This document shows, piece by piece, positions 21,675 through 64,000 of a DNA stretch of 64,000 nucleotides. Position numbers and translations under genes: made by a program. Each line of letters starts with the position of its first letter. Position 1 is the first letter of the stretch. The DNA comes from Alphaproteobacteria bacterium (GTDB lineage Bacteria > Pseudomonadota > Alphaproteobacteria > Bin95). The notes under the pieces were generated by a model. It saw only the letters and a program-made list of their open reading frames with translations. It had not been told where the DNA came from and ran no database searches. The DNA lies in contig CBDBGH010000001.1 in NCBI GenBank assembly GCA_965205265.1, positions 1 through 64,000 on the forward strand, written 5' to 3'.

Positions 21675-22427
21675 ATGGAGGATATCATGGAGTGCGTCAC
21701 TGGTCCCATGGGATCGCAGTTCCACCGCATCGACAGCATACCCCTGTACATGATGGAGAGACTGGCCGGAATGGACTGGAACCTGGCGGGCCGTCGCGTG
21801 ATGGTCGACGCAGCCCAGGGCATCATCTGCTGGATGTCACCGTCAAGTGTCCATGAAGTCAACGCCAAAGCGACGGATCGGCTCGTGGAGATCGCCGGAT
21901 CCCTTTTGGGGAAGCAGGTGGTGCTCCTGGGAGGCACCCGCTGGAAACGTCCCGGAGATCCGGAGGGCACGGGTCTAGAGGCGGACGCGGCCTTCTATGT
22001 CGGCGGGAACGCCGAGGCCTGGTATGCCTCCGCGAAAACGGGCAAGCGGGCGCTTCAGGACTTCGAGTCCGCCACACCGTCGGATCTGGTGGTGGAGGTG
22101 GAGGTCACCCATCTCGACCATGACAAGCCAGACCGTTACGCGGCCCTTGGCGCACGTGAGATGTGGCAGGTGACGGAAAGGGAAAGCGATACGCCCCCCA
22201 TCGTCCAGATCCTTGACCTCCAGGCGGAAAGAGGCCCCACACCGATGGAGACCTCAAGGCTCCTGCCCGTCCTGTCAAGTGACCGTCTCTCCGAGGCCCT
22301 GTGGATCGCGCGGATGAATCCCCGGGCGGAGACAGAGAACCGTCTCAGTGATCTGCTCGACCGTCGGCCCGGACCGGACACAGAGCGGGACCGTGGCGCG
22401 TGGCGGGCACCCTCGCCGTTCGACTGA
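21675..22427 (+). CDS. Uma2-family PD-(D/E)XK endonuclease
   Basis: MSPSSVHE, GLEADAAFY, PSDLVVEVEVT, KPDRYAALGAREMW. Confidence 0.88.
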   Translation: MEDIMECVTGPMGSQFHRIDSIPLYMMERLAGMDWNLAGRRVMVDAAQGIICWMSPSSVHEVNAKATDRLVEIAGSLLGKQVVLLGGTRWKRPGDPEGTGLEADAAFYVGGNAEAWYASAKTGKRALQDFESATPSDLVVEVEVTHLDHDKPDRYAALGAREMWQVTERESDTPPIVQILDLQAERGPTPMETSRLLPVLSSDRLSEALWIARMNPRAETENRLSDLLDRRPGPDTERDRGAWRAPSPFD

Positions 22428-22545
22428 TGGCCTGACCCGCATCTTCCATTGGGAGGGGTCGCGGGGTCCATGGGAACGCAGGCCATCCGTCTTCCCTCCC
22501 GAAACACCCATTGCAGCGGAGCGGGCCCGGAACGGGTTGCGGTCC

Positions 22546-23778
22546 TCATCCCCCGACACCCACGGCGACGGTGCGGTCCCTTACCGACGCGACGCCGATC
22601 GATCGCCCGATGGACCGATGCAGCGCCTCCCACGGCGCGGTCGGGGCGGGCACGACCTCATGCAGCGCCCTCACATTGGCGGCCGACGGCTCCGGCATCC
22701 GCGCCCCGCACGACCTTCGGAACCTCACCGTCACGGCCCGCCGTGGCCATCGCCCTGATCTCGGAGGCCGTGAAGGCGCCGTAGAGCCGCGCCGCGAGAA
22801 TCCCTTGGTCCATCCCCATATCTGGCGATCCGAGCGCCGCGGCCAGGACATCCCGCTCCCGCCGAAGCGTCGGGACATCCATTTCCGGCCGCCCCTTTCC
22901 GAGCGCACCGGTCATCGCCTCCGCGGTCCGCTCCGGCCCGTCCCCTTTGGCGGCCACCACCGCCGCGGCAACCAGCCGCTCCAGCGGAGTCGGCACGACC
23001 TCCCGCCGCGCCAGCCGCCCCGCGGCCCTTCCATACCGGTCCCGCCATTCCCCGGCAAGCGCCGGATCGGCGTAGACCGGCTCTCCCCGGAACCTTTCGG
23101 TTTCGGCCGCGAGGGGACTCTCCTATATCCCCTGGCTGACGGAGACACGGAGGTCGGCCTCCGCCCTCGCGCGGGCGATCACGCGGGCCGTGGCGGTGAT
23201 ACCGGCCTCCCGCCCGGACCGGTCCCGCACGGCGTCCTTCAGAAGGGCATGGATCGCGTCCTGAAGACCGGGCCCGTGGACCGGACTGTCGGCGGCGGTC
23301 CTGCGGGTGACCACACAGGCAAGCAGCAGCGCCAGTTCCCGGCAGTGACCCTCCGCCATGGCACCGCCGACCCGTGAAAAGGCTGCGCCCTGCCCCGCTA
23401 GGCCGCAGCCGGGCCCCTTTCCCTGGCGTAGCCCGCCACACGCCGCCTGCGTCGTCCGGCACCCCCGATTCCGAACAGTCCGAGGGCGTCTCGGGCGACC
23501 TGTTCGTCGGATTTCTCCACGGCGGCGAGGATGCCGCCGATGTCGAGACCCCGCCGCATCGGCCGCCGCCTCCTCCTCCGCCGACGTTCCCCGGTGCCGC
23601 AAGGCAGGTCGTCCATCCGCGTCCCCTCTCCCGCTCCGCGCCCTTTCGGGGCGACCAGGTCATCCACCTTGCCGAGCATCCGCGCGATCCCGGCCCGCTG
23701 GCCGTAGAGCGCCAGTCCGGCGGGGACCCGCTCCCCGATGCCGCGGAGGTGCCGGCCCATCTCCGCGGTGCTGGCCCT
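22546..23778 (-). pseudogene. Decayed GC-rich coding remnant of unknown function
   Basis: Several protein-like segments in shifting frames (e.g. ILAARLYGAFTASEIRAMA), cut at 23779 by the resolvase duplication. Confidence 0.35.
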
Positions 23779-24342
23779 GCCGCAGCTGAAGGCCGCGTTC
23801 GCGTATCTCCGCGGCGGCGATGCCCTGGTCGTCCGGAAGCTCTCGCGGCTGGTGCGTTCCCTGAGGCAGGCCATCCAGACCGTTCAGGACATGCAGGCCC
23901 GGAACATCGACCTTCGGGTACTCACGCAGAACATCGACACCGCCACACCGGAAGGGCGCCTGCTCTTCCACATGACGGCGGCCTTCGACGGGTTCCAGCG
24001 GGAGCTGATCGTGGAGAACACCAGGGCGGGGCTGGCGGCAGCCAGCAGGCAGGGCCGCAGGGGCGGCCGGCCCCGGTCGATGGACGACGGGAAAATCCGC
24101 CTTGCGGAGTCACTGCTCCGGGACACGGAGAACCATCCGTTCGTCAGCGATGTCATCAGGCAGCTCGGGATCGGGAAAACCGCGTTCCACCGCTACTTTC
24201 CGCCCGAACGTATCCGGGAACTCAGACCGCCGCCCACGCGCCCATGTCAACATGCCCGGCAAAGGACGGCACGATCCCTGCGGTCCTTCCGGACCGGAAC
24301 GGGGCCTATGTTACTTTACGTTCCTTTGTTGGGTTTAGGCCG
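23779..24342 (+). repeat. 564-bp direct duplicate of 19476-20039 (resolvase 3' half + Tn3-type end)
   Basis: Identical translated ORFs at an offset of 4303. Confidence 0.92.
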
Positions 24343-24536
24343 GAAATCGGCCGGGTCCATGCGGTCCTGCGCTCCCGTTGGCCGACGATGAATCGGACGG
24401 ATGTGGCCGTCGGTCTCCTGCATATGGGTGTCGGAAAAGCCTGACTGAACCTCCGTCTCCAAGGCTTCAGGTCCTGGACCAAGCGAAGAAGCTGGCTTCA
24501 GGCGCCGGAATCCTGTAGGATCCCAGCATCAATGTC

Positions 24537-25934
24537 ATGAAAGGACAGAAAATGGTCGATCTGCAGGGTCTGGAGGAATTCAGCCATATGCCGGACCGCG
24601 ATGAGGCCCCATTCCTGACCGGTCGCGATGGAGAGATGCGGCTTATCGACAGGCTCTGCCGAAATGCCTTGGGGAAAGTGACGGCTGGAAAAGAAGCCTC
24701 CAGCATGACGGCGCTGCTGCAGGGGGCGCCCGGCGCCGGCAAGACCTCGATCCTCAACCATCTCATCGACCGGTGGAGAAAGGATGCGGAGAACGCGCCC
24801 TATGTCGTGAAGATCAAACCTGCGGATCTGGAGGATGAGGCGGAACTGGCCGTTGCCATAATCGAGGCCGTGCGTCCCGGCGCTTCCCTGGTCTGGCGCA
24901 CGGAACATACTGCCGGACGAACGGGACGGGCCGGATTTTCCGGCACCGGTATGGAACTGGCCGACGGTACCATCGTACAGCCTGGTCCACGGTCCCTGAA
25001 CAATATCCTGTCAACGCTGTGCGGCGACAGGATCAAGGGGCCGAACTGGATCTGGGACCGCCCCATCGTGCTGATGGTGGATGAGATTCAGAGCCTGCAG
25101 CCACCGGTGGCGTCAATGATCCAGTCGCTGCATACGGGCTTGCATGGACTTCCGCTCGTGCCATTGTTCGCCGGTCTGGGCGATTCCCTTTCGGTCATCG
25201 AAAGATTCGCCAGCGGCTCCCGCCTGACGGCGGACAATGTCATGCGGTTGGGGTCGCTGCAGCCGGAGCAGGCGGCCAGCGTGGCGCACAGGATGTTCCG
25301 GACCTATGACGTTCGCGGCAGCGATGCCGCCCGCCGGCAATGGACCGACTGGGCCGTGGATGTCTCCGACGCCTGGCCGCAGCATCTGCACAATGCCCTG
25401 CGGGCCATGGCCCGCGGACTACTGCGGACCCGCGGGCGGTTGGACGATGTTGACGCTGGACAGGTTCATGAACAGGAACGGAACCTGCGACTTGCTGTCT
25501 ATAGGCGGCGACTGTCGGATCCCATGAAAGACGCCCGCCGACTGGTGGCGGCGGTCATGCGCGACTGCTCTCCAGGGACGGATGGATACGGGCCATATCA
25601 GGACGACATGCTCGCCTCCATCCGTCGGCACCGGCGCTTTGGGGACAGGCCGGAGGATGTGTCCTGGGAACTGCCGAAACATCCACCGCAGACACCCAGG
25701 GCCGGTCAGCCCATGGACGAGGATTCATTCCTGCGCCATCTCATCCATCGCGGGAGCCTGCATGAACGCGAGGATGGAGGTTTCGAATGTCCGATCCCGA
25801 CATTCCGCGACTTCCTTGTCCATCGGGGGAATCCGGTTCCGGCCCTGGAACATTGTATTGACCCATCCCCATCAAGGATATCCGCGACGGAACCGGAGCT
25901 GGTTCCGGATAAGGACGCGGATCCCTCACCGTAG
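24537..25934 (+). CDS. AAA+/P-loop ATPase
   Basis: FLTGRDGE, GAPGAGKTS (Walker A), LMVDEIQ (Walker B), WPQHLH, CPIPTFRDFL. Confidence 0.88.
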   Translation: MKGQKMVDLQGLEEFSHMPDRDEAPFLTGRDGEMRLIDRLCRNALGKVTAGKEASSMTALLQGAPGAGKTSILNHLIDRWRKDAENAPYVVKIKPADLEDEAELAVAIIEAVRPGASLVWRTEHTAGRTGRAGFSGTGMELADGTIVQPGPRSLNNILSTLCGDRIKGPNWIWDRPIVLMVDEIQSLQPPVASMIQSLHTGLHGLPLVPLFAGLGDSLSVIERFASGSRLTADNVMRLGSLQPEQAASVAHRMFRTYDVRGSDAARRQWTDWAVDVSDAWPQHLHNALRAMARGLLRTRGRLDDVDAGQVHEQERNLRLAVYRRRLSDPMKDARRLVAAVMRDCSPGTDGYGPYQDDMLASIRRHRRFGDRPEDVSWELPKHPPQTPRAGQPMDEDSFLRHLIHRGSLHEREDGGFECPIPTFRDFLVHRGNPVPALEHCIDPSPSRISATEPELVPDKDADPSP

Positions 25935-25979
25935 AAATGGATGCATCCATTCACCGCTTCCCTCCTTTTCAGCCCGCCG

Positions 25980-26899
25980 ACCTGGAGGGATATCCTCCCC
26001 GCCAGCCCGATGGCCTCCGACGTGGGGCGGGCCACGGCGGCGCGGCTTCACGCCGCCGCCGGATAGCGCATGCGGCGGCGCCGAACGGTGATGCCGGTCC
26101 CGTCCAGAAGCGCCGAAAGCACGGCGCAGGCGACGATGCCCAGCCCGTACTGCAGCGGCCCCGGCATGGTGTCGGGGAACGCCCCCGTCGTCCGGGCCTG
26201 GCAGCGCGGGCAGTCCCTGACCCCGGCCACGACCCGGCGCCCGGCGGTCTCGAACACGATGTCGGCCCCGCCGCGCTCCCGTGCCCCGTGCATTCGGTTC
26301 CGGTCAGGTCGTGGCCGCACCCGCGGCACCCGGCCACCGGGCTGGTCCCGGTCACGGCGACCGTCCGCAGGTTGCCCGGGTCCGTCTCCCCCGCCTTCGG
26401 CCCCCTGCCGCCGGAGCCCTTTCCGGCGCTCCGCGCGGTCCCGTCCCCGTCCCTGCGCGACGGCGGCAGGCCGGAGTTGCGCGGGGTCCTCCGCGTCGTC
26501 CTCCCGGCAGCACCGCCACCAGGATGTCCAGCAGCATGAAGGGCGCGTTGACCGTCCCGACCGTCTCCGCGCCCGCCCCGCCACTCCGCCTGATGGCACC
26601 GGACCGGGACTGGCAGCCGTCAAGCTGCCTAGGCAGCGACGCCCCGTTCACCGTCGGCATCGACCCGCCCCCGTATGGACGCGGCGCGGTGGCGCGGCCC
26701 TGGTTCCCGATCCGAAGTGGCCCATCCGCGGCCCCCGATAGCCCGCCCGGCCTACGCTGTCAAACCCTTCGCGCACAGTCGGACGGAAACGGCCGGATCG
26801 TCCAATGCATGACCGTGCCCTGTCAGGGAATCCGGAACGGCAGCTGCGCGGTCAGCATTGCATCGGGCCGGATTCAGCGGGAAAGGGGAGAGTAGTTAC
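25980..26899 (-). mobile_element. IS66-family element remnant
   Basis: GTAAC end at 26899 (minus strand). CRGCG and CPRC...FPDTMPGPLQYG segments are homologous to the element at 39881. Confidence 0.75.
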
Positions 26900-27937
26900 C
26901 CCGTCGTTTATGATCCGCTCGATCTGTGTGGCGGTCGCCAGGATATCTTCGAATCCGGGAGCCGCGCCAAAGATCATGGCAGTAGTGTTGGCATAATCAC
27001 GACCAAGCGCATCAATCATCTCGCTGACCGGTGCGATGGCAAATGATCCCGGGGCGGCGGAGGTCAGATCATAGTCCGGTCGATCAAAGAATATGCGGGC
27101 GTGGCGCACGCAATCGGCGCCGAGTTCGCGGTCCGTGAGCGCCGCTTTTCCGACCTCGGAGCCGAGCAGGCAATGCAGGTCGTAATAGTGCCGTGACACG
27201 CGCTGGCCTTCCTGCCGGAGCACGCCGCGCCGTTCGTACCAGCGCCGCAAGCCATGTGCGATCACCACCTTGTCCCAGAAGGTACGGGTGGCTTCAATCG
27301 TGGTGACGCCGACGACCGTCAGATCGAGCCCACCAGCCTCCTCACTGACATAGGGTCGAATTGTAACGGGACGGTTGGGATCGAGCGCTGACTTCGCGCC
27401 GGATTCGATTCGCACTGCCGGCCGCACATAGGCTCCGTCGCGTGGCTCAACCTCGGGATACCAGACGAGCAACGTCTGACCATCGGGATCGGCTTCGTCG
27501 ATCTCAATCCGCCCGGTGCCATTGGTGGCGTCACCGAGCTGTGCGCTGAGGAATTCGTTGAGCGGACCCGTGATATAGGCACGGCATGCGTCCCGGATCG
27601 CGTCAAGCCTGGCGCGGCGTTTCTTGTTCGACAGAGCCTCCAGTTCCTCGACCGAAGCGGCCTCATTGAGGTCGCCGCGGAAGACGGTGACATCGATGTC
27701 CTCGGAAAAGCGCTCGATTAGGCCATAAGCTTTCGACAACGAGGTGCCGCCCTTGAATAGCAGGCGTGGTCCGTCGGCGGGCCGTTCGTGATAGAGCGCA
27801 TTCAAGGTCCAGCAGACCCAGAAATCCTTTTCGACATTACCGATCGGCGTGCCGAGCCGATTGGCGGTGGTAAGAAACAGATCAAGCCGGTCAGACGGCG
27901 GCGCGGCGATGACCTGCTTGTAGGCTGCGGTGGTCAT
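26852..27937 (-). CDS. abiEii: AbiEii/AbiGii nucleotidyltransferase toxin (type IV TA)
   Basis: VEKDFWV, LLFKGGTSLSKAYGLIERFSEDID, RTFWDK, SRHYYD. The last residues come from the IS66 end. Confidence 0.92.
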   Translation of the reverse strand: MTTAAYKQVIAAPPSDRLDLFLTTANRLGTPIGNVEKDFWVCWTLNALYHERPADGPRLLFKGGTSLSKAYGLIERFSEDIDVTVFRGDLNEAASVEELEALSNKKRRARLDAIRDACRAYITGPLNEFLSAQLGDATNGTGRIEIDEADPDGQTLLVWYPEVEPRDGAYVRPAVRIESGAKSALDPNRPVTIRPYVSEEAGGLDLTVVGVTTIEATRTFWDKVVIAHGLRRWYERRGVLRQEGQRVSRHYYDLHCLLGSEVGKAALTDRELGADCVRHARIFFDRPDYDLTSAAPGSFAIAPVSEMIDALGRDYANTTAMIFGAAPGFEDILATATQIERIINDGVTTLPFPAESGPMQC

Positions 27938-28602
27938 GGCTGACCCTCGTCCGCATCGGTTACGCTGAGCAGGCCTCGCAAGAACTCCTGCATCCAGATC
28001 GGCAGCGCGGATAGGCCGGCGCGTAGATCGTCGCGGATCGCCTGCCCATGCTGCGGGTCGGCGAAAAGGCGGCGCAGCGCGGTCTGGACGCGGGAGCGCT
28101 CATCGTCCTGGGTTAGCATGTCCTGCATCCAGTGCAGCGCCTGGACAACGCGCATCGCCGGCCGGCCGGCCCAATAGAGGCGGCTGGGCGCGGCGAATTT
28201 GAAGTGGATCTCTTGGCTACCGAGCTTGATCGGCTTCAGGCGTGCATCCACCAGTACCTCGATGCGCGCGGGCACGGCGGTGGTGAGGCCGAGATCGTTC
28301 GCGGCGGTCATGCCGTCCACCACGGCACGCGCCTGGTCGCGGCGGGTGACGGCGCGGATGACGGCGCGATAATCGGGCACGGTGGGGCGGCCGGTCAGCT
28401 CATTCTTGCGGGGCTGATTGTAGAGACCGCGGTCGATGCGGCGTAGATCGCCTGCAGTGGCGAGGCGCTGCAGGGTTTTGTCGATGGCGGCGCGGCCGCC
28501 AAGATCGGCGAAATCGCCGGGCGTCCAGACCTCGTTCGGGCTGGAGGCGATCCGGGCGAGGAGCCGGGATCGAAGGTCACTATCGTGTGCTGAGGTCGCC
28601 AT
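27934..28602 (-). CDS. AbiEi-like antitoxin (DUF6088-type)
   Basis: Winged-HTH TPGDFADLG...LRRIDRGLY and AANDLGLTTAVPAR; coupled to abiEii. Confidence 0.85.
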   Translation of the reverse strand: MATSAHDSDLRSRLLARIASSPNEVWTPGDFADLGGRAAIDKTLQRLATAGDLRRIDRGLYNQPRKNELTGRPTVPDYRAVIRAVTRRDQARAVVDGMTAANDLGLTTAVPARIEVLVDARLKPIKLGSQEIHFKFAAPSRLYWAGRPAMRVVQALHWMQDMLTQDDERSRVQTALRRLFADPQHGQAIRDDLRAGLSALPIWMQEFLRGLLSVTDADEGQP

Positions 28603-28671
28603 GTCCGAAATATGATACATTTTTCGGACAGATACAAGGTTGTGTCCGAAGAGTGCTACATTCTTCGGACA
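28602..28671. promoter_or_regulatory. Tandem inverted-repeat operators of the abiE promoter
   Basis: TGTCCGAAA-N11-TTTCGGACA (28602-28630) and TGTCCGAAGA-N9-TCTTCGGACA (28643-28671). Confidence 0.7.
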
Positions 28672-28853
28672 GATTAGTGCTGTCGGCAGCGCCATGACCG
28701 GGCTTTGAGCCTTTGGTCAGTCACCGACGATAGTCCACCCTTCGGTTGGCCGTCGTCAGTTCCCACCCTCGTAAACACCAGCCCGACGGAGCAGGTCTCC
28801 GATACTTGTGGGCCCTGTACGCACGAAGTGGGTCAAAAACGGCCAGGTTTTCA

Positions 28854-29411
28854 TTAGAGCTGGGTTTTGCGCTTGATGCGGTCGATCGTGGCGACGCCGA
28901 CGTTGAAGTGTCGGGCGATGGCGCGAATTGACTGACCATCCCCGAGCATTGACCTGACCTGGCTCTGTTGGTGTTGCGTCAGTTTACATTTTCGGCCGAA
29001 CTTCACGCCACGTTTTTTCGCCGACGTCCGGCCTTCCTCGGTGCGTTCGTTGATGGGATTGCGCTCGAGTCCGGAAAGTCCGGCGAAAACAGTGAGCGGG
29101 AACCTGCCCATGGAGCCTGTTGTGTCCGCCCATGGCTCACGCAGGGACCGGAACGAGGCTCCGGCGGATTCAATTCCGTGGGTGATGGCGAAGAGGTCGT
29201 TGGTCGAACGTGCGAGACGGTCAAGGCTGGTGACCAGCAGGATGTCATCCGGCTGCAATGTGCCGGGCATCCTCCCGGGCTGGGGACGGCGACGATCAGA
29301 TCCGGCCATTTTTTCCTGGAAGACCGTCTCACAGCCCTCGGACTGGAGGTGCTCGATCTGGCTTTCCAGGTTCTGTCCTGTCGTTGAAACCCTTGCATAT
29401 CCGATCAGCAT
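28854..29411 (-). CDS. tnpR: Serine resolvase (several helix-breaking substitutions; possibly inactive)
   Basis: MLIGYARVSTTGQ, SLDRLARS, GVKFGRK and an HTH. Confidence 0.85.
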   Translation of the reverse strand: MLIGYARVSTTGQNLESQIEHLQSEGCETVFQEKMAGSDRRRPQPGRMPGTLQPDDILLVTSLDRLARSTNDLFAITHGIESAGASFRSLREPWADTTGSMGRFPLTVFAGLSGLERNPINERTEEGRTSAKKRGVKFGRKCKLTQHQQSQVRSMLGDGQSIRAIARHFNVGVATIDRIKRKTQL

Positions 29412-29523
29412 CGGTTCTGGCTTGGTTTCGCCGGGTGTTTACGGAACGGATATACGGGTTTTTCAAGGTGCTGGTTTCGCGCGCAAAAAATTCTGTTCCG
29501 GAATTTATAGGTTTCGGAACGCA

Positions 29524-32452: not shown

Positions 32453-32472
32453 ATATCCCCCAATACCTCAAT

Positions 32473-32985
32473 ATGCTGATCGCGCGGCACGACCGGCGGC
32501 CCCGGCGCCGCGTTCTGGACCCGTTCTGTGGAACCGCGACAACGGCCCTGAGCGCCGCGTACCATGGACATGAGGGGATAACGACAGACATCAATCCGTT
32601 CCTGGTGTGGTTTGGTGGCGTGAAGACAGCGCGGTACTCCGGCGCTGCGATAGCTTCCACGCGCGACGCAGGCGCCCGGGTGATGGAGGCGGTCGGGCGC
32701 GGCACATTCGATCCTGTCGAGCCACCTCCCATCCATAACATCGATAGATGGTGGTGTCAGGAGGCGCTGGAGTCCTGTGCAGGGCCGATCATCCGTGCGC
32801 CTGCACCGTACAGCCCCGTTCATGACAGATCGGCAGCGGGCCAGGAAGCCCAACCGATCGATCCCGCTGGACGCCTTGCGCCCCTGCTGCTATCGCTTTG
32901 GGCAGTACATTTCTGTACTTCCCTTTTTGTCGCTGACTGCATGGCCGAGAATGTGCGTAAAGGGGACTGGGACTTCGAACGATGA
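32473..32985 (+). pseudogene. Amino-DNA methyltransferase fragment
   Basis: VLDPFCGTATT...DINPF SAM-binding motif. No catalytic (S/D/N)PPY motif. Confidence 0.65.
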
Positions 32986-33113
32986 CCGAATATGATCGCA
33001 AGAAGATGATGGAACTGAACAGAAAGCGAACGCGAATTGCCGGATACGTCGGGTGGTGAAGTCGCGGCGTTCCCTTAGGGTTGATGGCATTTACGGATAA
33101 AGGAATTCACCGG

Positions 33114-35028: not shown

Positions 35029-35031
35029 CTA

Positions 35032-38513: not shown

Positions 38514-38664
38514 GCTGGGTGGCCGGGGCGTTTCCACGAGCCAAAGTGTGGCGGAATGCCGCAGTGGGTGGCTGGTCGGGCGCCGTCCGCGCATGGCTGG
38601 CTGCGCCGTCCCCTCCGGGGCGGCGTCCGCGGCGTCCGGTGCTGCCTGAACCGGCGGTGCCGGA

Positions 38665-54628: not shown

Positions 54629-54967
54629 CATCGCCGCCCACAAGCTGCTGTCTTCACAAGATCGGTGACGGCTACTCAGATGCAATTTCCGGACGGTATT
54701 GCGAGACTGTACCGGGTTAAGACAGGGCTCTTGCTGCGAGTTACCGGATGGCCGTCTATCTCGCAGCACTGTAGCGGCGGTTTTCACTGTGTTCTCCAGC
54801 GAACACGTCTCTGAGACCACTGCCAGCATTTCCCAGGTTGTTCCGTTCTGGGCTCACAGCGGACCTCAGAGGCGGCTCAGCGAATGCTAAATCTCAAACT
54901 GATTCAAACGGCCGCCTTAGCCAGTACGCTGGTGTTGCTTCGCACTCGCAGCGAAAGACCACTTCCC

Positions 54968-55120
54968 GCTCATTCTGTTGAAAAACAACGTGTTGCGAGC
55001 TAAGAAAGTGAGATCTGAGTAAGTGCGCGAGTGACTATTGAACAGGGCTTTCGCGTTTGCTGCGGTGCGGGAAAGATCTTCGCCAGCTTGCGGAGGTTCT
55101 GGGCGGTGGCAGCGAGGAGG
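54968..55120 (-). pseudogene. IS1182-family end and transposase C-terminal remnant
   Basis: LLAATAQNLRKLAKIF on the minus strand, followed by an ATTCTGTTGAAAAA terminal motif. Confidence 0.6.
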
Positions 55121-55195
55121 GATGCGTCGTTTGCGCCGCTTGGCCCACGTAATCGGAGCCATCCGGGGCCTAGGATGCGCTTGATGTGCGCGAAG

Positions 55196-55290
55196 GTAAG
55201 CGGTTAAAGTACGGCGTTCGGTCGGGTCCCACCCGTCCTTTTTTGGTTTGACAGTATAGGGCATCGCCCGCCAGTGGCTGGCCATCGGGA
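55196..55290. repeat. Diverged copy of the 3988-4082 element
   Basis: Gap-free alignment: GTAAGCG.TT.AAGTACGGCGT ... GACAGTATAGGGCAT ... TGGCCATCGGGA. Confidence 0.75.
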
Positions 55291-55783
55291 TCGGGGACGG
55301 ATGGCCCATCCGGCTTCGCCGGGCGGGCTGTCCGGGCTGCAGGCGGCCACGGTCGCGACCTAGGAGGGGCGGACCGCCGAGCTGGCGGCCGTGGTCGCGC
55401 CCCTGGCGGTCCAGATCGCCCGGCGCGCGCCCTGTACGGCTCGCGCCCGGAAAGGCGCGGGAAGGCGTCCGACGCCCCCTCCGGCGAAGACGGCAGGACG
55501 GCGACGGCTGCCGCCGCGGCGGCAGGCCTGGACGCAGGAAGGAGCGCGGCGATTCGGTCGGCGACGCCGGACTGCGCTTCGACGGCAAGGTCCCGGTAGT
55601 CGACGGGCTGTCGGAGGACGGTTATGAGGTGGTCCCGGAGCGCGTCCACACTAGCTCGCCGCCCCGGAGTTCCGGCACGTGGTCATCCGCTACCGGCACC
55701 TCGCCGTGTAGGTCAGTGGGACCGAACGGCCGCCGCGCCTACGAGACCGACGCGGAGGCCCGCGGCGGCGCGGTCTCACACCA

Positions 55784-57147
55784 GACCTCCCGGTGCAGCC
55801 GCCTGAACGCGGCCCCGTCGAGCTTCCCGCGCGCCTCGCAGGCCGTGGATGCCGCCGGGGGCCCGTCCTGCGGCAGGTCGACGCCCGCCGCCGCGCACTC
55901 CTCCCATAGCCCGCACAGCGTGGTGCGGTAGCCCTGGCCGCCAGGCGTGACGGTGAGGCGGAACACGAACGGCATGACGGGCAGGCTGCCGACACCCGCC
56001 TCCGCCATCGGGCGTCCCCGCGCTCCGCGACAGCCGTGGCGGCCGCGACGGGCTCCTCCCGGTGGCGGCCGAACCGGCGGTCCGAGGCGGCGGAGCGCCC
56101 CCTCTCCGCCCGCGTCGGCGATCCGTCATCCTCCCCGCGCAGGATCCCGCGGGCATTCCCGCGCAGCGGCATCAGGTGGACGCCCTTCACGGTCCTGCCT
56201 CCGGTCCCGCCGGTCTCCCCGATGTGCCTCCAGCCCGCGCCCCGATGGCACGAGGCCCTGAACCGGGTCCCGTCCACGAATGTCCCGCACATCACCGGAC
56301 GCCAGCCGTGGAGGCGCTCCCAGTCGTCCGCGAGCTGCCGCACCGCCAGGGCCAGCGCCGGGGACGCCAGGAACTTCGAGCGCACCCAGGGGAACACGGG
56401 GTAGCGCGGGTTCACCACCATCAGGTGGCGGTTGCGGTCCCGGCACGGAAGCGTCCTCCTCACCGCCTCGAAGAGCAGGCACCCCAGCCTGCGGCCGTCC
56501 CGGTCGGTGAGGAGGTAGCGGACGTGCGCCCCGAAGGGGCGCCTGTAACCCAGATGGTGGTGGCGGTCGACGGGCGCGTTCCAGAGCCGCCTGCCCTCCG
56601 TGTCCGTCACGGGCTCCAGGCCCAGCGGCCGGAGATCGCGGAGCCGCGCCGCGACCTCCGGCTGCGGGTCGGAGGCGGAGGTCCAGGCCGGCCTGCCGGC
56701 GGCCCTCATGTCGCGGACGCTCCCCTCCCGCCTCGCCGGCAGCCTGGGGATGCCGTGGCTCTCCAGGGTCCCGGCATGCCGAGGCAGGCCCCGACCCTGC
56801 AGGCACCCTTCGCCGTCGTCCAGCCAAGGTGCCCGCGGATGGTCCTCCCCAGCCCGTTGCGGCTGTCGTTGGGCAGCAGCGCCACGGTCTCCTGGATGTC
56901 GGCGGTCCGCCGCCGGGTCAGGCGGCGGCCGGAGAAGGTGGTCGATCTCAGGTCGGTGATTCGCCGGTCCATGGCCGGTTCCCGTATCTGCCCGACACCA
57001 GCATACGAACCAGCGTCCGCCTGTCAGTGGGTCTGGCGAAAAAAATCTGGAACACCGAAAACCACGCCATGTCAACGGCTTGCGACCGGCAGGGAAAACC
57101 GCTCAGGAACGTAAGGGCTATCCGAATGCCATTGGCTGGGTGGCCGG
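55784..57147 (-). repeat. Partial duplicate of the DUF4338-IS4 element (about 37190-38527)
   Basis: Near-identical ORFs. This copy retains 27 bp that are deleted in the first copy, between GTGGCGGCCG repeats. Confidence 0.9.
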
Positions 57148-57195
57148 GTCACCTCCGTCCCGGACGGCCTGCCGATCAAGGCGCGGTACTGGGGG

Positions 57196-57518
57196 TGCAG
57201 ACGCTGGCCCTGCCGGAGTCCGTGGCGCGGCGCAAGGCGCTGTCGATCGGGCATGTCGGCCGCGAGATCGCGCGCGACGGAAGGCTGCTGGCGGGGGGAT
57301 GGAACAGGCCGAGGCCGGACGGGGAGCCCGCGATGGAGCCGGGGAAGTACCTGCAGTTCATCTCGAACACATCCGACTTTATAGAAACTGCGGCGCGGCA
57401 GGTGGCGAAGGCCGGAAAGGGCGGCGAATGGTGGGGCGCGGACCATGCCGCCGCCCGTTTCGTGGCCAGCACCGCCGACGCGGCGGAGCACCTGGCCAAG
57501 GCCATGCTCGGGCTATGA
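57196..57518 (+). pseudogene. MNT-HEPN paralog fragment
   Basis: VQTLALPESVARRKALSIGHVG...AAEHLAKAMLG matches 58682-59719. Confidence 0.8.
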
Positions 57519-57695
57519 GGGGACGCGCGCCGCCTCGCCGTGCGACCCGGCAAGCCCGCGCCGGTGCGGCGGGATCCATATCTCGTATTCCAGCAACCGG
57601 CTGGAGACCAGGGTCTCGTCCCACAGCGAGACCGGCGGCTGTCGGTCCTCGGCGAGGAGATGCGCAAGCGCAATCGACGTGTCGAGATAGATCAC
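57513..57695 (-). pseudogene. VapC/PIN toxin, truncated
   Basis: GTG start, IYLDTSIALAHLLAE...SSRLLEYE. Confidence 0.8.
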
Positions 57696-57985
57696 CGGTC
57701 GCGCCGACTCCCGTCCAGCTCCGCCAGCGCCTCGTCCAGCGCGGCGACCGGCGGCGGCTTCGGCGGCGGACCCGAGCCGGACAGCGCGGGCGCCGCGAGA
57801 ACGCCGGAGCGCACTGCGTCGGCCAGGAAGGCGTCGGCGAGGACCGGGCTCCGGGCCTCCCTGAGCGGTCCGAGTTCCGCCACCACCCTGTCCCGATCCG
57901 TCACCAGGACCGTCTCGCCGGATGCGGCGAGACGCACACACTCGCTCAACCGGCTGCTCAGCGCCTTGATCCCGATCGACCTCAT
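57692..57985 (-). CDS. Phd/YefM-family antitoxin
   Basis: MRSIGIKALSSRLSECVRLAASGETVLVTDRDRVVAEL. Upstream palindrome GGTAGCGA-CCGA-TCGCTACC at about 57993-58012. Confidence 0.85.
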   Translation of the reverse strand: MRSIGIKALSSRLSECVRLAASGETVLVTDRDRVVAELGPLREARSPVLADAFLADAVRSGVLAAPALSGSGPPPKPPPVAALDEALAELDGSRRDR

Positions 57986-58681
57986 GCACTCAAGGTAGCG
58001 ACCGATCGCTACCCCGTCAACAGCGCTTTCCCGCCGGGCGAAGCTGAAGATGATTCTTGCATATCCGGGGACTGCCGGGTAACAGGAGGGCGGTCCCCCT
58101 CGCCCTTCGACTGATCCGGAGAGCCATCGGGCGGCCGGAAGTCCACCGGACATCCCACCCCTTTGGAATCTCCGGAGGCCACCCCGGCGGCCGGACCGAT
58201 TTCGGTCCCGGGGCGGCTGGTCGGTATCTCCAGAGCGCTGAACCTGTCCGTGCATCGGGTGTAGCCCGGAATTCCGTCATGCCGCCGTGGCATGATCCGC
58301 CCGGCACACCCTCCGGGACCTTTCAATGTAACACTGTTGACTCGATGCCAGCGTAGCCGTGCGTGGCCAGATCATGTCCGAGGGAGCGGATATCCGTTCC
58401 GGAGACTCCGTGATTCCAGTGTGGACTGCCGTTCCAGCGGCATGGATCCGGTGACCTGCGCGGTCACGGACGTGAATTCCCGATCGGTTCGGCCCAGCCC
58501 GGCCGGTTCCTGTGGATTGGGCCGCCCATGAAACAAAAGGGACATCGAGTTAACAGTGTCCAGTTGAAAGTCCCGGGACTACGGACCGGAAAGGGGAACA
58601 GAGTCGGAAATCCTGCCCCGCGCGCCCTGTGCAAGACAGCGCTTTCCTTCCTTCGGTTCCCGGTGCTACCATCCCGACACC

Positions 58682-59719
58682 ATGGCCAGCCCTGACAGAC
58701 AGCCGCCCGCCGCCGGGGCGGCGACCCTCGCCGGAATCCGCCGGGCGGCGGAGGAGACCCTCGCCGTCTGGCCCGAGGCCAAGGCGGCGGCGCTGTTCGG
58801 TTCCCGGGCGCGGGGCGACCACCTGCCGTCCAGCGACTGGGACGTCGCCTTCATCACCCGGACCGGCGACCGGGTGACCGCCATCCCGGACGGCTTTCCG
58901 ATCGAGACGCTGTTCTGGGACGTCCAGGCGCTGGCCCTGCCGGAGTCCGTGGCGCGGCGCAAGGCGCTGTCCATCGGGCACGTCGGGCGCGGGGTCGCGC
59001 GCGACGGAAAGCTGCTGGCGGGGGGATGGAACGGGCCGAGGCCGGACGGGGAGCCGGCGATGGAGCCGGAGAGGTACAGGAAATTCATCTTCATCGCGTC
59101 CGACCATATCGAGCATGCGGCGATGAAGGTGACGGAACCCGGAATGGGCGGCGACTGGTGGCTTGCGTTTGATGTCGCCGACCTTTTCGTGGCCCGCACC
59201 GCCGGCGCGGCGGAGCACCTGGCCAAGGCCATGCTCGGGCGGCGCGGGATCGACCCGCATCCGACGCATGGTGTCGACCAGCTCGCCGACCAGACGGCGC
59301 GGGAGGGGCATTCCGCTCTGGCGGAGGACATCCGCGGGATGGACGGCTTCACCAAGGAGGACCATGTGGCGGGCTACGAGGGGACAGCCTCCGCCCGCCT
59401 CCAAAACGCCATCCGTCGCCTGCCCACCGTCGTCCGGCGGCTCGCGCTGGAGCTTGCCTCGGCCGCCGAGGACCCGAAATTCGCCGATGTGGTCGCGCAG
59501 GTCGCCACGGTGGTGACCAGGAAGGCCGCCGCCCGGGACACCCTCCGGCTGGCCATCGTGCGGGACGCCTCGGATCCCTCCCCACCCCCGCAGCACCGGT
59601 GGTTGGCGCCGCTGGTCGTGGCGCGGGAGTCCTTCCTGCCAGAACTCCTGAAGCTCCAGGCCGACCTCCGGCCCCTTGTGGGTCAGGAACGGGACCGCGT
59701 CGCGTGGCGGTCCTCCTGA
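58682..59719 (+). CDS. Minimal nucleotidyltransferase + HEPN-like fusion
   Basis: LFGSRARGDHLPSSDWDVAF (MNT) and AAEHLAKAML...PHPTHGVDQL (HEPN-type AxE..LKA...P.TH). Confidence 0.82.
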   Translation: MASPDRQPPAAGAATLAGIRRAAEETLAVWPEAKAAALFGSRARGDHLPSSDWDVAFITRTGDRVTAIPDGFPIETLFWDVQALALPESVARRKALSIGHVGRGVARDGKLLAGGWNGPRPDGEPAMEPERYRKFIFIASDHIEHAAMKVTEPGMGGDWWLAFDVADLFVARTAGAAEHLAKAMLGRRGIDPHPTHGVDQLADQTAREGHSALAEDIRGMDGFTKEDHVAGYEGTASARLQNAIRRLPTVVRRLALELASAAEDPKFADVVAQVATVVTRKAAARDTLRLAIVRDASDPSPPPQHRWLAPLVVARESFLPELLKLQADLRPLVGQERDRVAWRSS

Positions 59720-59866
59720 CCGTTCGGCTGATCCGTGAGCCACCGGGCGGGCGGGTGTCCACCGGACATCACTTCCATGGTGAAACCCAGCCGACCCGCA
59801 GCCTCCGGTTTCGGGGCAGGGCGGTGCCGGATGGGTCGGCGCCTCGGCGGCCACCGGTCCGCCCAT

Positions 59867-60628
59867 TTAGCAGCAGCGCCCGGCGGCGCCAGTCCGGGGC
59901 GGCGGGCGAACGGGGATAGTCGAGCCACCGCCGCCGCGAGAACATCGGGGCGAGCATGGCCCCGATGCGGAGGGGATGGGGGCGATCATGGTACCGCAGT
60001 CCCATCCCTCGGGCTCCGTGTAGCTCCACATCACGGCATCGATCCTCATCGACGGTCCGTAAGCGATGGGGATGTCCCGGGGGAGACGGCCGCACCCGCC
60101 CGGACCGCAGACGCCGAGCAGGAGATCCCCGCCGGGCGCGGTGGCCTCCGCCATGCCGAGCAGGACGCGGTCGACGTCGGCGAGGGTGTCCTGATGGATG
60201 TAGCCATACCAGAATCCGGTCACCAGCTCCGCAGGCCCGATCCCGGCGAGGTCGCGGGCGTCCCGCTCGATGAAGCTGGCCGCGAACCCTCCGCGGGCGC
60301 GGGCCATCTCCAGCATCCGCGCCGAGCGGTCGACACCGGTGCGCCGCGTCGCCCCGCCTGCCCGCCGCAGGTGGAACCCGGTTCCGCAGGCCACATCGAG
60401 CCACCGGCGGCCGCCTGTCCGCGACCGCAGCAGCGTCTCCACGGTCCCGACCTCGAATTCAGTGTGGGGGCGGTTGACAGGTCCGGTGAGGTACCGGCTG
60501 TCGTAGAGGCGGACGAAGTCCGGGTCGTCATAGGGCCGCGGGGGCGGCGGCCATTCACTTCCGGCGGCGGTTGCCGTCCCGGATCCCGCCACCCGGTCAC
60601 GCCAGCTCGGCGCCGGGGGCCCGGACAC
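59867..60628 (-). CDS. Class I SAM-dependent methyltransferase (ends possibly frameshifted)
   Basis: WLDVACGTG, GVDRSARMLEMAR, APGG. Confidence 0.75.
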   Translation of the reverse strand: MSGPPAPSWRDRVAGSGTATAAGSEWPPPPRPYDDPDFVRLYDSRYLTGPVNRPHTEFEVGTVETLLRSRTGGRRWLDVACGTGFHLRRAGGATRRTGVDRSARMLEMARARGGFAASFIERDARDLAGIGPAELVTGFWYGYIHQDTLADVDRVLLGMAEATAPGGDLLLGVCGPGGCGRLPRDIPIAYGPSMRIDAVMWSYTEPEGWDCGTMIAPIPSASGPCSPRCSRGGGGSTIPVRPPPRTGAAGRCC

Positions 60629-61918
60629 GGCTTCGGGCCGGCGGTTCGCCGCCGGTCAGTTCAGGCAGAGGCGGCGCCAGCCCGCCCCTCTCCATCAGGT
60701 ACGACCTGAACGAGGGGATCGGGCAGGAATGGAGCTCGTTCGTGTTGAACTGCAGGACCCCCCGGTGCACGAGATGTTCCAGGAACCATTCCTCGTCCCG
60801 GCCCTTCGGCAGACTCCAGCCATCCCCTTCCGGATCATCCAGAGGCCGGGCGAGGCTCCTGATCTGTCTCACGATGGTTGAGTCCTCGCTGCCTTTCTCC
60901 GGCAGCTGCCGCATCAGCTCCGCCACGAGGAACCTGGCGTCGCGGATCTCTTTCGAGCGCCGCCGGCTGTAGGAAGCGGTGCGGAACTCCCGCTCCCGCT
61001 GCCGGACCCGCGCCGCGTCGACGTCCGCGAGCCTCCCCCGCATTCCAGCAGCCCCTTCGCGAGCGCCCGCATGCCGTTGTGCAGGTGCTGCGGCCAGCCG
61101 TCGGAAAGACCCGCGATGAGCGTCGGCCAGCTGACCCGCGCGTCCCCGGCGGGGACGCGGAACTCGTCCAGCATCCTCTCGACCGCGTAGGCCGCCTCCC
61201 CGTCCCCGAGGGCGCCGACCTCGTGGACCGCCTCGGATTCCAGCCGGGTCAGGCCCGCCGCCTGGAGCCTGTCATGCGAGTCGCCGAGGCCCGCGTAGAC
61301 CGGCACGACGGGAAGGCCGTGCCGGGCCGTGTGCAGGGCCAGGAGCATGGGCCCGGCCTCCGGCCCGACGGTCTGGATCTCGTCCACCATGAGACAGACC
61401 GGGCGCGGCCATGTCCGTCCCGGCAGCGTCCGCCCGAGGGTGTCGAGGCCCGCGTCCTCCGGATGGACGGACCCCCCGGTGCGCCCGTCGGCACCGGTCC
61501 CGCCCAACCCGACGGCGCCGCCGACGCTCCAGGACCGCTGGGTGCGCCAGTCGCCGCTGGCGCCGGGCGAGCCGGCCTCCGCGATGAGGGAGGCGACGCG
61601 GGCCTGATCACCGAGATCCACCGGCTCCAGATGGACGGTGACCGGCCCCTCCCCGCCCCCGGCCTCCCAGAGCTTCGCGAGTTCCGAAAGTATCGCCGTC
61701 TTGCCGGCCCCCGGCGCGCCCCGCAGCAGCTGCGTGGCGCCCTTGGGGCCCTGACCATCCCCGGCCCTCTTCCCGGCCCTAGCGCAGACATCGGAAATGT
61801 GCCCGATCACGCCCGCGCGGCCGACGAAGAACCTTGCGTCTTCCCGGTCTCCGGTCCTGACGAACTCCGCCAGACCTTCCAGGTCCGGTCCGCTCGAGCC
61901 CATGGAAAACGGTACCAT
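60597..61918 (-). pseudogene. AAA+ ATPase paralog of 24537-25934, frameshifted near 61040
   Basis: FFVGR, GAPGAGKTA, LMVDEIQ, WPQHLHN; then HLVHRG...CPIPSFRSYL in a second frame. Confidence 0.85.
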
Positions 61919-62030
61919 CTGTCTGCCCTCCCGAAGCGCCCGTGCCGGCCGGTCATCCATAGCGGAAAATCCGCCGGGGAGCAACCGCGGGGCGCCGCGG
62001 CGGCCGAACCTCAGATGACGGTCAGGGGCG

Positions 62031-62977
62031 GTGCCGTTCGGTTCCCGGGCGCGGGGCGACCACCTGCCGTCCAGCGACTGGGACGTCGCCTTCATCACCC
62101 GGACGGGCGACCGGGTGACCGCCATCCCGGACGGCTTTCCGATCGAGACGCTGTTCTGGGACGTGCAGGCGCTGGCCCTGCCGGAGTCCGTGGCGCGGCG
62201 CAAGGCGCTGTCCATCGGGCACGTCGGACGCGAGATCGCGCGCGACGGAAGGCTGCTGGCGGGGGGATGGAACAGGCCGAGGCCGGACGGGGAGCCCGCG
62301 ATGGAGCCGGGGAAGTACCTGCAGTTCATCTCGAACACATCTGCCTTTATACGGGATGCGGAGCCGGAGGTGGCGGCAGCCGGAATTGAAGACGACTGGT
62401 GGGATGCGACCTATGCCGCCTACCGTTTCGTGGCCCGCAGAGCCGCGGCGGCGGAGCACCTTGCCAAGGCCATGTTCGGGCGGCGCGGGATCGACCCGCA
62501 TCCGACGCCCGGCGTCGACCAGTTCGCCGACCGGGCGGCGCGGGAGGGGCACTTCGCCCTGGCGGAGGCTGTCCGCGAGATGGACGGCTTCACCAAGGAG
62601 GACCATGTGGCGGGCTACGAGGGGGCGAACGCCGACCGCCTCCGCCACGCAGCCGCGCGCCTGCCCACCGTCGTCCGGCGGCTAGCGCAGGAGCTCGCCT
62701 CGGCCGCCGGGGACCCAAAATTCGCCGAGGTGGCCCGCTGGCCGCCAGGGTCGTGGCCAATTCCGCCCGCGCCGCCGGGGACACCCTCCGGCTGGCCATC
62801 GTGCGGGACGGCGCGGATCCCACCCCGCCTCCGCCGCCGTACCAGTGGCTGGCCCCTTCGGTCAGGGCGCGGGAAACCTTCCTGTCGGAGCTCCTGAAGC
62901 TCCAGGCCGACCTCCGGACCCTTGTGGGTCAGGAACGGGACCGCGGCGCGTGGCGGTCGCCCTCGCCGTTCGGCTGA
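62031..62977 (+). pseudogene. MNT-HEPN paralog, 5'-truncated and frameshifted near 62735
   Basis: FGSRARGDHLPSSDWD...; C-terminus ...LRTLVGQERDRGAWRSPSPFG* in another frame. Confidence 0.82.
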
Positions 62978-63203
62978 TCCGGAGAACCACCAGCCACCTC
63001 CTCCTTTCGTTCCTGATTCTCTGAACATACGAGGCCAACGCGCCGGAAAACCCGTCAAGTCAGCCCATGTCGGCAATCCTGCGGGACTTTCGGGACCTCT
63101 GTCGGGATGGACCCGTCGCTGTCGGACACCGACCGGGCGGGCGGACCGTCAGGAAAGGTTGCGGATGTGTCCCGCCGTGGTGTAGGAGGAATGCCTGTCC
63201 GCT

Positions 63204-63896
63204 ATGGAGGATATGATGGAGACCGCCACAGGTCCCATGGGGTCGCAGTTCCACCGCATCGACAGCATACCCCTGGACATGATGGACAGACTGGCCCGCA
63301 TGGACTGGAACCTGGTGGGACGGCGCGTGATGATCGACGCAGCCCAGGGCATCATCTGCTGGATGTCGCCGTCAAGTGTCCATGAAGGTATCGCCAGGGC
63401 GGCGGACCGGGTGGTGGAGATCGCCGGTTCCCTTTCGGGGCAGCTGGTCGTGATCAGGGGAAGCACCCGCTGGAAACGTCCCGGGGATCCGGAGGGCACG
63501 GGTCTGGAGGCGGATGCGTCCTTCTATCTCGGCGGGAACGCCGAGGCGTGGTATGCGGCCAAGAAAGCCGGTAAACAGGCAGTCCTGGATTTCGAGTCCG
63601 CCACACCGCCCGATCTCGTGGTGGAGGTGGAGGTCACCCATCTCGACCAAGGCAAGCCAGCCCGTTACGCGGCCCTGGGTGTTCGCGAGATGTGGCAGGC
63701 GACGGAGAGGGAAGGCGACACGTCGCCTGCCATCCATTTCCTTGACCTCCAGGCGGAGAAGGGACCCACTCCGATGGAAGCCTCAAGGCTCCTGCCGACC
63801 CTGTCGCGGGACCGTCTCTCCGAAGCCCTGCGGATCGCGGAGACTTATCCCCGGATGGAGACGGAGAACCGTCTGAGTGATCTGCTGGACCGGTGA
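63204..63896 (+). CDS. Uma2-family endonuclease paralog
   Basis: Highly similar to 21675-22427, including upstream DNA; stops just before a decayed copy of the shared tail. Confidence 0.86.
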   Translation: MEDMMETATGPMGSQFHRIDSIPLDMMDRLARMDWNLVGRRVMIDAAQGIICWMSPSSVHEGIARAADRVVEIAGSLSGQLVVIRGSTRWKRPGDPEGTGLEADASFYLGGNAEAWYAAKKAGKQAVLDFESATPPDLVVEVEVTHLDQGKPARYAALGVREMWQATEREGDTSPAIHFLDLQAEKGPTPMEASRLLPTLSRDRLSEALRIAETYPRMETENRLSDLLDR

Positions 63897-64000
63897 CCCG
63901 GGACGGGACCGTGGCGCGGGGCGGCCCGCTCACCTTTCGGCTGATCCCTGGCTCCACCGGCCGCCAGATCCGCACGGTCCTTTCGTGGGTGGTCAATGCG

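Follow-up and report, generated by a model that had tools for sequence, protein, structure and literature searches.

The 64-kb window analysed here is the first 64 kb of contig C1, a 193-kb plasmid in the genome of an alphaproteobacterium (GenBank assembly GCA_965205265.1; three contigs, 5.7 Mb in total, 66-68% G+C). It contains several copies of a 42-nt repeat that forms the 3' end of genes of two unrelated kinds, Uma2-family nucleases and fused nucleotidyltransferase-HEPN (MNT-HEPN) proteins, and encodes a C-terminal peptide tail. The genes and relics concerned, together with an ATPase gene that has a related ending, are given below. Positions are those of the window; C1 or C3 (the chromosome) is prefixed where a contig is meant, and protein ends are written up to the last residue before the stop codon.

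21675-22427, + strand: Uma2_1, Uma2-family nuclease gene (Pfam Uma2), the sole tagged gene of the window that is fully intact
24537-25934, + strand: AAA_16-type ATPase gene (Pfam AAA_16/AAA_22), ending ...DKDADPSP, a short P-x-P form of the tail
57138-57513, + strand: internal fragment of MNT-HEPN copy 3, 84-87% identical to 58870-59240 and 62105-62481
57524-58021: foreign segment replacing the rest of MNT-HEPN copy 3, 88% identical to C3:4699309-4699806
58089-58154, + strand: 'orphan' tail, the relic 3' end of MNT-HEPN copy 3 with the shared post-stop bases, 83% identical over 66 nt to 59706-59770
58682-59719, + strand: MNT-HEPN1, fused nucleotidyltransferase-HEPN gene (Pfam NTP_transf_2, Polbeta, HEPN)
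62024-62984, + strand: MNT-HEPN2 pseudogene, 86% identical to 58782-59739
63204-63896, + strand: Uma2_2 (Pfam Uma2), 84% identical to 21587-22379
C1:64309-65061, outside the window: Uma2_3, tail intact and in frame
C1:65020-65061, + strand: sixth tail copy, just beyond the window, at the end of Uma2_3

The 42-mer pattern, allowing up to three mismatches, matches at 22386, 59690 and 62936 (0 expected, from 100 shuffles), and an 18-nt core is present at all five sites that the first-pass annotation of the window had listed (mean 0.88 expected; none of the 100 shuffles reached five). Searching the complete genome by Hamming distance, on both strands and with up to 12 mismatches, returned four 42-mer matches, at 22386, 59690, 62936 and 65020, all on the + strand of C1, to which BLAST adds two decayed copies at 58089 and about 63900. 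The six copies thus all lie on the + strand of one plasmid. No further copy was found in the rest of the 5.7-Mb genome, and none is intergenic or inverted; the repeat was likewise not found in 40 relatives (best foreign match 35 nt, E 8e-5) or in any of the 36 further genomes from the order. A plasmid database queried with positions 57000-64000 of the window gave no match. The five copies had been placed correctly, and their position at gene ends on the plus strand agrees with the scan of both strands. The annotation had also allowed for a repeat of the repetitive extragenic palindromic (REP) kind, scattered out of frame and between genes; every copy is at a gene end, on the + strand of C1.

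Every copy forms the 3' end of a gene, and these genes are paralogs of two kinds, three of them Uma2 and three MNT-HEPN. Similarity between the DNA of the two families begins at the tail (22383-22428 versus 62933-62978, 89% over 46 nt) and, in five of the six copies, extends about 20 nt beyond the stop codon; the similarity past the stop reported at 58112 and 59729 is real and is part of the 66-nt match listed above. Four of the six copies are broken. Only Uma2_1, whose tail RDRGAWRAPSPFD is encoded at 22386-22427, and Uma2_3 are intact tagged genes, because Uma2_2 stops early and the MNT-HEPN copies are interrupted, frameshifted or fragmentary. The three plasmid Uma2 proteins share 76-80% mutual identity. 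In Uma2_2 a stop codon precedes the tail, and the decayed copy noticed behind this gene is indeed present, at 63904-63944, with a 1-nt deletion. MNT-HEPN1 is otherwise intact, its tail copy (59690-59731) being shortened by a TGA at 59717-59719 so that the protein ends RDRVAWRSS. MNT-HEPN2 is truncated at its 5' end and has a frameshift near 62714-62732, with tblastn matches in two frames; its tail copy at 62936-62977 reads RDRGAWRSPSPFG. The statement that the repeat ends Uma2 and MNT-HEPN genes consequently holds for position, but within the window the tail is intact and in frame only in Uma2_1. The supposed orphan gene end at 58089 does carry a tail, and belongs to the third MNT-HEPN copy: the fragment at 57138-57513 matches residues 81-186 of MNT-HEPN1 (tblastn, 73%), the chromosomal counterpart of the foreign segment adjoins a PIN-domain gene, and a GC frame plot gives no coding signal at 58000-58600. 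The ending ...DADPSP of the AAA ATPase was confirmed.

The tail is very likely a selected peptide motif. Its form is about D-x-G-W-x-x-P-x-P-(S-P-F-D), a disordered C-terminal peptide; allowing for its variants it reads roughly [D/E]-x-G-(A)-W-x-x-P-x-P-(S-P-F-[D/G])-COOH, is often truncated to P-x-P and follows a flexible linker. Chromosomal Uma2 paralogs with no more than 33-34% identity to those of the plasmid have the ends LPQPSPFD and LPEPSPFD, written with the codons TCC-CCC and TCT-CCG where the plasmid genes use TCG-CCG; other Uma2 paralogs end LPQP or TPQP, and the chromosomal MNT-HEPN paralog ends DIPQP. Counted by regular expression (an end of the form P-x-P or P..PF[DEGC]), the tip is present in 28 of 71 foreign MNT-HEPN homologs, in seven of 27 foreign Uma2 proteins (a further seven have variant tips) and in all three foreign members of a third family of unknown function, which at 36-52% identity retains ...APSP, APAP, LPAP or APTP. 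MNT-HEPN relatives at 34-73% identity end RDRGAWRSPSPFD, AGLPSPSPFED, PPTPSPFD, DSDLPEPSPFC, DDDPSPSPF, DDDGPSP or DWQPPEPSPFGENPFP, and Uma2 relatives end DDSPSPF, GWTPPEP, SSPPSPSM or LPEPTPFVDPTDPFKG. In the Uma2 alignment the pattern P-D ... (W) ... P-x-P at the tip is constant and the linker variable. An AlphaFold model of Uma2_1 (mean predicted local distance difference test score, pLDDT, 84.9) is folded to about residue 229, with residues 233-250 disordered (pLDDT below 50).

Elsewhere, an AAA ATPase gene adjoining an MNT-HEPN gene in another genome encodes the end LPEPSPFD, and close relatives in another genome have an identical 16-residue end, DPERDRGAWRSPSPFD, in both families. Back-translated P[EQ]PSPFD followed by a stop was also sought in metagenomes: 65 stretches were recovered, 36 of them with a true stop codon, of which three close an open reading frame (ORF) of at least 180 aa and the rest look like chance. 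Searches of the literature by motif string and background, supplementary tables aside, retrieved no description of the tip. The first-pass proposal of a C-terminal export or degradation tag thus survives as far as a conserved peptide motif goes (distant homologs, other codons, disorder and the chromosomal proteins treated below); an Arg-rich signal of the VirB/D4 kind was not shown.

Two further observations concern the foreign homologs. An MNT-HEPN and AAA-ATPase pair in another genome (L066:4859-13156), both tipped PSP[FY]D, is flanked on one side by a 1017-aa gene and on the other by an 87-aa repeat of the 3' end of this gene, and looks like a site-specific insertion with target duplication. 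Five homologs (P0044, P0051, P0052, P0056 and P0008) add a second short motif after the tip (…PSPFGENPFP, …PPFDDPTGPFQT, …SPIEDLTNPFKM, …PTPFVDPTDPFKG), consisting of repeated x-P-F units reminiscent of NPF/DPF-type motifs.

The near-identity of the repeat DNA is explained by paralog duplication together with one tail exchange. Uma2 and the fused MNT-HEPN gene would each have been duplicated to three copies on the plasmid, and their tails, with about 20 nt of post-stop sequence, would have been homogenised by recombination or gene conversion between neighbouring genes, most copies now decaying. The identical tail of about 16 residues in both families and the shared non-coding bases after the stop point to such a local exchange, and the sequences indicate that it came on top of a natively similar tip. 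The suggestion that the tail had been grafted on is therefore right for the local exchange, but both families are natively tipped in distant relatives.

The same kind of ending is concentrated in one part of the chromosome, outside the window.

C3:4.736-5.321 Mb (C3:4736000-5321000): island of about 585 kb
C3:5127293-5130463: gene for a Cas9-like protein (RuvC_III+HNH, 1056 aa) within the island

The island is bounded by 2.2-kb direct repeats that are 99.6% identical, each with an integrase gene. It encodes replicon-type proteins (DnaA, DnaG, DnaB, an RpoD-like sigma factor, GyrB and a class II ribonucleotide reductase) as well as RecQ, RecJ, RecD2, topoisomerases, HipA and AbiEii. The whole resembles an integrated element of megaplasmid size and probably explains the 7.3% 'contamination' figure. 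In our own crude gene call for the whole genome, based on G+C at third codon positions (GC3; 4873 genes), P-x-P stands at the exact C-terminus in 43 of 543 island genes versus 33 of 4330 elsewhere (odds ratio 11.2, p 2e-22). Six-frame ORFs of at least 150 codons, which are independent of the gene caller, end in P-x-P in 78 of 1942 cases in the island versus 222 of 16230 elsewhere. Within the island the P-x-P count is 44 at offset 0 versus 6-20 at offsets 1-10, and outside it the profile is flat. Proline is the last residue of 94/543 island genes versus 357/4330 others, and [LIV]P[EQSA]P occurs within the last 15 residues of 28/574 island proteins versus 15/4299 elsewhere. Among the tagged island genes codons and stop codons vary, and the downstream DNA is unrelated. 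Asp or Glu is commonest at positions -5, -6 and -8 of the tagged tails, and the last 30 residues of the tagged island proteins contain 12% E and 9% D, versus 7% and 7% in the protein bodies. The plasmid tail in the window has four acidic and three Arg residues.

The tagged island proteins are diverse. Pfam assigns six of 42 to pentapeptide repeats, five to DUF6878, four to ankyrin repeats and three to Uma2, with single members matching TraG_N, topoisomerase, DnaB, Thg1-like and helix-turn-helix (HTH) families, and leaves 19 without a family. The first-pass annotation had proposed counting the distinct families that carry the tip; in an all-versus-all clustering with tails removed, 44 tagged proteins fell into 24 of 386 clusters. 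The paralog families of the island are large (40 pentapeptide, 19 DUF6878-like and 15 ankyrin members). No insertion sequence transposase is tagged, and the tag is also absent from Uma2 and MNT-HEPN paralogs that lie outside the island. In the DUF6878 family the Pro end is confined to the closest relatives, and thus the tag goes with the element and not with the domain family. A search of the 40 relatives did not find the island family. The same contig, C3, encodes 14 SSB proteins (one ending DDDIPF, ten ending DRIPF, DIIPF or DPPF, and three without a tip), a number that is a sign of many integrated mobile elements.

A type IV secretion system had been named as something to look for, and transfer genes of two types were found, an F-type region beside the island and a type IVB/I-type set within it. 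Scanning 59 large untagged island proteins identified DotH/IcmK, a DotG/TrbI-like protein, an IncI-type TraI (PF16932) and two DotB/PilQ-type ATPases with a T2SSF partner, with a TcpQ-like protein nearby. The island also encodes a 1178-aa DotL-like coupling ATPase, directly upstream of which lies the gene for a DotM_C protein (E 4e-29) that matches Legionella IcmP/DotM chains in the PDB (E 1e-11). One published study describes DotM of Legionella as binding acidic, Glu-rich C-terminal effector peptides, with R196/R197, R217 and R314/R315 required for peptide binding; the same study places dotM upstream of dotL throughout type IVB systems and considers that in other species the co-evolution of DotM may have involved C-terminal tails of different kinds (PMC5802825). 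In the island protein, 'TERL' and 'NRRLWY' align with R217 and R314/R315 (the numbering offset being inferred). DotM_C occurs in 5/15 genomes with MNT-HEPN relatives versus 27/400 others in an even sample of the class, or 26/399 without one unpublished genome (G076); the binomial tail, calculated by hand, is about 0.002 for genomes that are non-independent, incomplete and chosen from MNT-HEPN loci.

We propose that the tag marks substrates and is recognised by the coupling complex of the Dot/Icm-like (type IVB, I-type) secretion or conjugation system of the island. Its DotM-like subunit would be the most likely reader, and the complex would recruit tagged proteins for transfer into a target cell. 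From the sequence evidence we give this reading, mechanism included, a probability of roughly 0.45. We suggest still more tentatively that an acidic linker followed by (W-x-x-)P-x-P(-S-P-F-D) may be a sequence-defined type IVB export tag on 40-plus unrelated proteins in a bacterium outside the Legionellales, and that it would move between genes by tail exchange, of which Uma2 and MNT-HEPN in the window would be an instance.

Several observations weigh against this proposal. Exact P-x-P ends occur in only about 8% of island genes, the gene calls that underlie the tag counts are crude and GC3-based, and many island paralogs have near-miss ends (LPEPSPA, LPEPGRT, DWPPEPSPR, PEPSPFGGAPV), a pattern that may also point to a feature in decay or without a strict definition. 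Acidity is far lower in the plasmid tail, RDRGAWRAPSPFD, than in those of the island. No VirB4/DotO-like ATPase was recognised among the island proteins scanned, and the type IVB machine may therefore be incomplete; on the plasmid, the gene upstream of the coupling protein has neither similarity to the island DotM-like protein nor a Pfam match. DotM_C was not found in ten of the 15 genomes with MNT-HEPN relatives, which are mostly metagenome-assembled genomes (MAGs) and in which not all copies are tagged. Apart from the AAA ATPase ending LPEPSPFD mentioned above, the neighbours of 79 foreign MNT-HEPN loci are untagged, with five P-x-P ends among 1210 crudely called genes and seven occurrences of [LIV]P[EQSAT]P versus 4.3 expected. 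Homologs of this genome's F-type and plasmid transfer proteins are absent within 10 kb of the foreign MNT-HEPN loci, the island Dot-like proteins being outside that query set.

The F-type system was considered as a reader and dropped. Its genes adjoin the left side of the island and encode TraE, V, C, W, N, H and G, a coupling protein, a TrwC relaxase and an integrase. The TraG encoded there ends ...PEPGWRDPSP; close TraG homologs end DWRDQSP, GWGDSSP or GWGASSP. Genes near TraG in seven related elements are untagged: 316 crude genes up to 60 kb downstream of TraG include one P-x-P end and no tag. A second F-type region (C3:3262078-3264954 and C3:3259746-3260198) has its own coupling protein and a TraG that shares 92% identity with its counterpart next to the island; no tagged genes were found around it.

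Other explanations have to be weighed against a transfer signal, beginning with those that give the peptide no role. That the repeat acts as DNA or RNA (a cassette recombination site, REP-like repeat, terminator or processing hairpin) might be suspected from the shared orientation of its copies, all at the ends of genes in a part of the plasmid where resolvase genes and Tn3 remnants abound, from the similarity running on for about 20 nt after the stop and from a GGGACCGC/GCGGTC hairpin that two copies can form. Yet the predicted structures differ among the six copies (z-scores -1.44 to +1.38 versus shuffles), no Rfam match overlaps any of them (matches in 57000-64000 are far below gathering scores), and none of the five window copies has the 3' T-run of an intrinsic terminator. 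Each copy occupies the homologous position in one of two paralog families, and the genome, the 40 relatives and the 36 genomes of the order hold no intergenic, inverted or other copies; the many copies in both orientations, between genes and across the genome that characterise REP elements, bacterial interspersed mosaic elements (BIMEs) or miniature inverted-repeat transposable elements (MITEs) are not seen here. Integron attC arrays are similar in having a co-oriented repeat at the 3' ends of successive genes, but differ from the present case, in which there is no conserved imperfect-palindrome fold, only two paralog families are involved and conservation is at the peptide level. In the ORFs that were scanned near the array we recognised serine recombinases, a DruA-like protein, a methyltransferase and a relaxase, and no integron integrase. 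The gene-cassette or recombination-site reading offered in the first-pass annotation is not supported, given that the motif is confined to the ends of two paralog sets, with no common fold and no Rfam match, and we regard a DNA or RNA element of any of these kinds as scarcely credible. Only a little better placed, and still highly improbable, is an effect of terminal prolines on translation termination or stability that tunes the dosage of island proteins. In E. coli a C-terminal Pro slows peptide release and can trigger tagging by transfer-messenger RNA (tmRNA), and the island's excess of genes with Pro as last residue would fit; the conserved Trp, the acidic linker and the SPF[D/G] extension, in which Pro is not last, are left unexplained. 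A purely historical account, in which one chimeric rearrangement and subsequent duplications produced the repeat and other proline-rich ends are compositional and functionless, agrees with the DNA motif being restricted to one plasmid and, there, to these loci, with the sharing of non-coding bases beyond the stop, with four of six copies being broken, which implies that selection on the copies is weak now, and with a G+C content at which ends rich in Pro, Ala and Gly come easily. It sits badly with the tips of distant homologs of both families behind variable linkers, the synonymous codon differences in PSPFD ends, the sharp P-x-P peak at the last residues in the island only and the retention of the tip in the third family at 36-52% identity, and we judge it unlikely.

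The remaining alternatives accept the peptide and give it another partner. It could be a docking motif for some other common partner inside the producing cell, such as a DNA-metabolism hub of the SSB-tip kind or a protease or chaperone adaptor, which would recruit or regulate nucleases, nucleotidyltransferases, helicases and DNA-mimic-like repeat proteins. The SSB tip, acidic residues followed by Ile-Pro-Phe-COOH, docks SSB onto partner proteins, and it shares with the tag a disordered linker, an acidic stretch and Pro-Phe. The end DDDPSPSPF, which occurs in several MNT-HEPN homologs, is much like this genome's own SSB tips DDDIPF, DRIPF and DIIPF; many tagged proteins act on nucleic acids, and the tag is present in genomes without detected DotM_C (the ten of 15 mentioned above). 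The terminal Phe carboxylate that defines an SSB tip is, however, usually missing, because most tagged proteins end PFD, PFG or P-x-P (...PFD or ...PFG in the window, mostly ...PxP without Phe in the island), so that they do not classify as SSB tips, and the untagged paralogs outside the island are more in keeping with a reader specific to the element than with a universal hub of the host. We therefore find docking within the cell rather unlikely, if the least so of these alternatives. Less plausible again is a short linear motif directed at a eukaryotic host by symbiont effectors, with the export signal elsewhere in the protein. P-x-S/T-P is a proline-directed phosphorylation site in eukaryotic cells, where NPF and DPF are endocytic motifs; many tips contain P-x-[ST]-P, homologs in Boseongicola-titled MAGs add ...ENPFP, ...TDPFKG or ...TNPFKM, and ankyrin and pentapeptide repeat families dominate the island. 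Against this, Ser and Thr are both missing from many tips (PQP, PEP, PAP, PGP), and nucleases, a topoisomerase and TraG are tipped as well.

The tag can be compared with characterised secretion signals. Like the E-block signals of Legionella Dot/Icm substrates, which are acidic as the island tails are and the plasmid tail is much less so, the tag lies in an unstructured C-terminal stretch of many unrelated proteins, ankyrin- and pentapeptide-type proteins among them, and the arrangement of DotM_C directly upstream of a DotL-like ATPase, with the residues aligned to R217 and R314/R315 kept, is shared too. Unlike the E-block, the tag has a defined tip, P-x-P, often W-x-x-P-x-P-S-P-F-D; and unlike a Legionellales pathogen, the host is a bacterium with a 5.7-Mb genome of free-living size and a giant island. 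Agrobacterium VirB/VirD4 substrates are marked by an Arg-rich C-terminal transport signal, which resembles the tag in being C-terminal, unstructured and found on unrelated proteins, and in the plasmid variant three of 13 residues are Arg. The island tails are instead net acidic, the transfer systems are F-type and I-type/type IVB-like, and Pfam detects no CagE_TrbE_VirB protein (VirB4 family, PF03135) in the genome, which places them outside the VirB/VirD4 type.

The plasmid itself shows many signs of mobility. C1 encodes ParA, carries Tn3 and resolvase remnants, has a MobA/TraI-type relaxase gene directly 3' of the array and contains an I-type-like transfer region at 156-177 kb. Within the window, positions 4813-30519 are a mosaic rich in serine-recombinase genes and fragments, and genes of defence or toxin-antitoxin type surround the array:

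2221-3405, + strand: HTH-IrrE/M78 peptidase regulator gene, defence/toxin-antitoxin-type
4813-5307, 16680-17357, 17751-18050, 19327-20259, 23738-24391 and 28854-29411: serine-recombinase genes or fragments
5612-6043, + strand: BrnT-like toxin gene, defence/toxin-antitoxin-type
13755-16658, - strand: Tn3-family transposase gene, whole
26852-28695, - strand: AbiEii and DUF6088 pair, defence/toxin-antitoxin-type
29524-30519: Tn3-family transposase fragment
55690-57075, - strand: DruA-like protein gene, defence/toxin-antitoxin-type

Smaller rearrangements are visible around the array. A 149-nt stretch is nearly duplicated in the window (57000-57148 versus 38379-38527, 99.3% identity). Directly 3' of the MNT-HEPN2 tail lies a sequence of about 48 nt with lower G+C (62987-63034) that recurs at C1:142697-142743 (+), 113448-113496 (-), 101159-101205 (-) and 6823-6862 (-) with 90-95% identity and may be a mobile-element end. 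Upstream of Uma2_2, 63031-63114 is an 82% inverted match to 13062-13146, which sits just past the 3' end of the whole Tn3-family transposase gene. Over the start of Uma2_3, a perfect 147-nt tandem duplication (C1:64084-64230 = 64231-64377) is a very recent event in the array.

The island is unusual in itself, as a very large integrated element with its own replication-type genes and a Cas9-like gene. Signals for type IV secretion are notoriously ill-defined, and as a rule reporter assays identify the substrates singly. If the type IVB proposal is true, the tag would give type IVB or I-type systems their first compact consensus tip and would provide a direct sequence rule for listing type IV substrates and hence effector or transfer proteomes. 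It would also offer a tractable peptide-receptor pair for studying cargo choice by DotM-type proteins outside Legionella, and it would exemplify the origin of new substrates by the swapping of a tail of about 50 nt between neighbouring genes.

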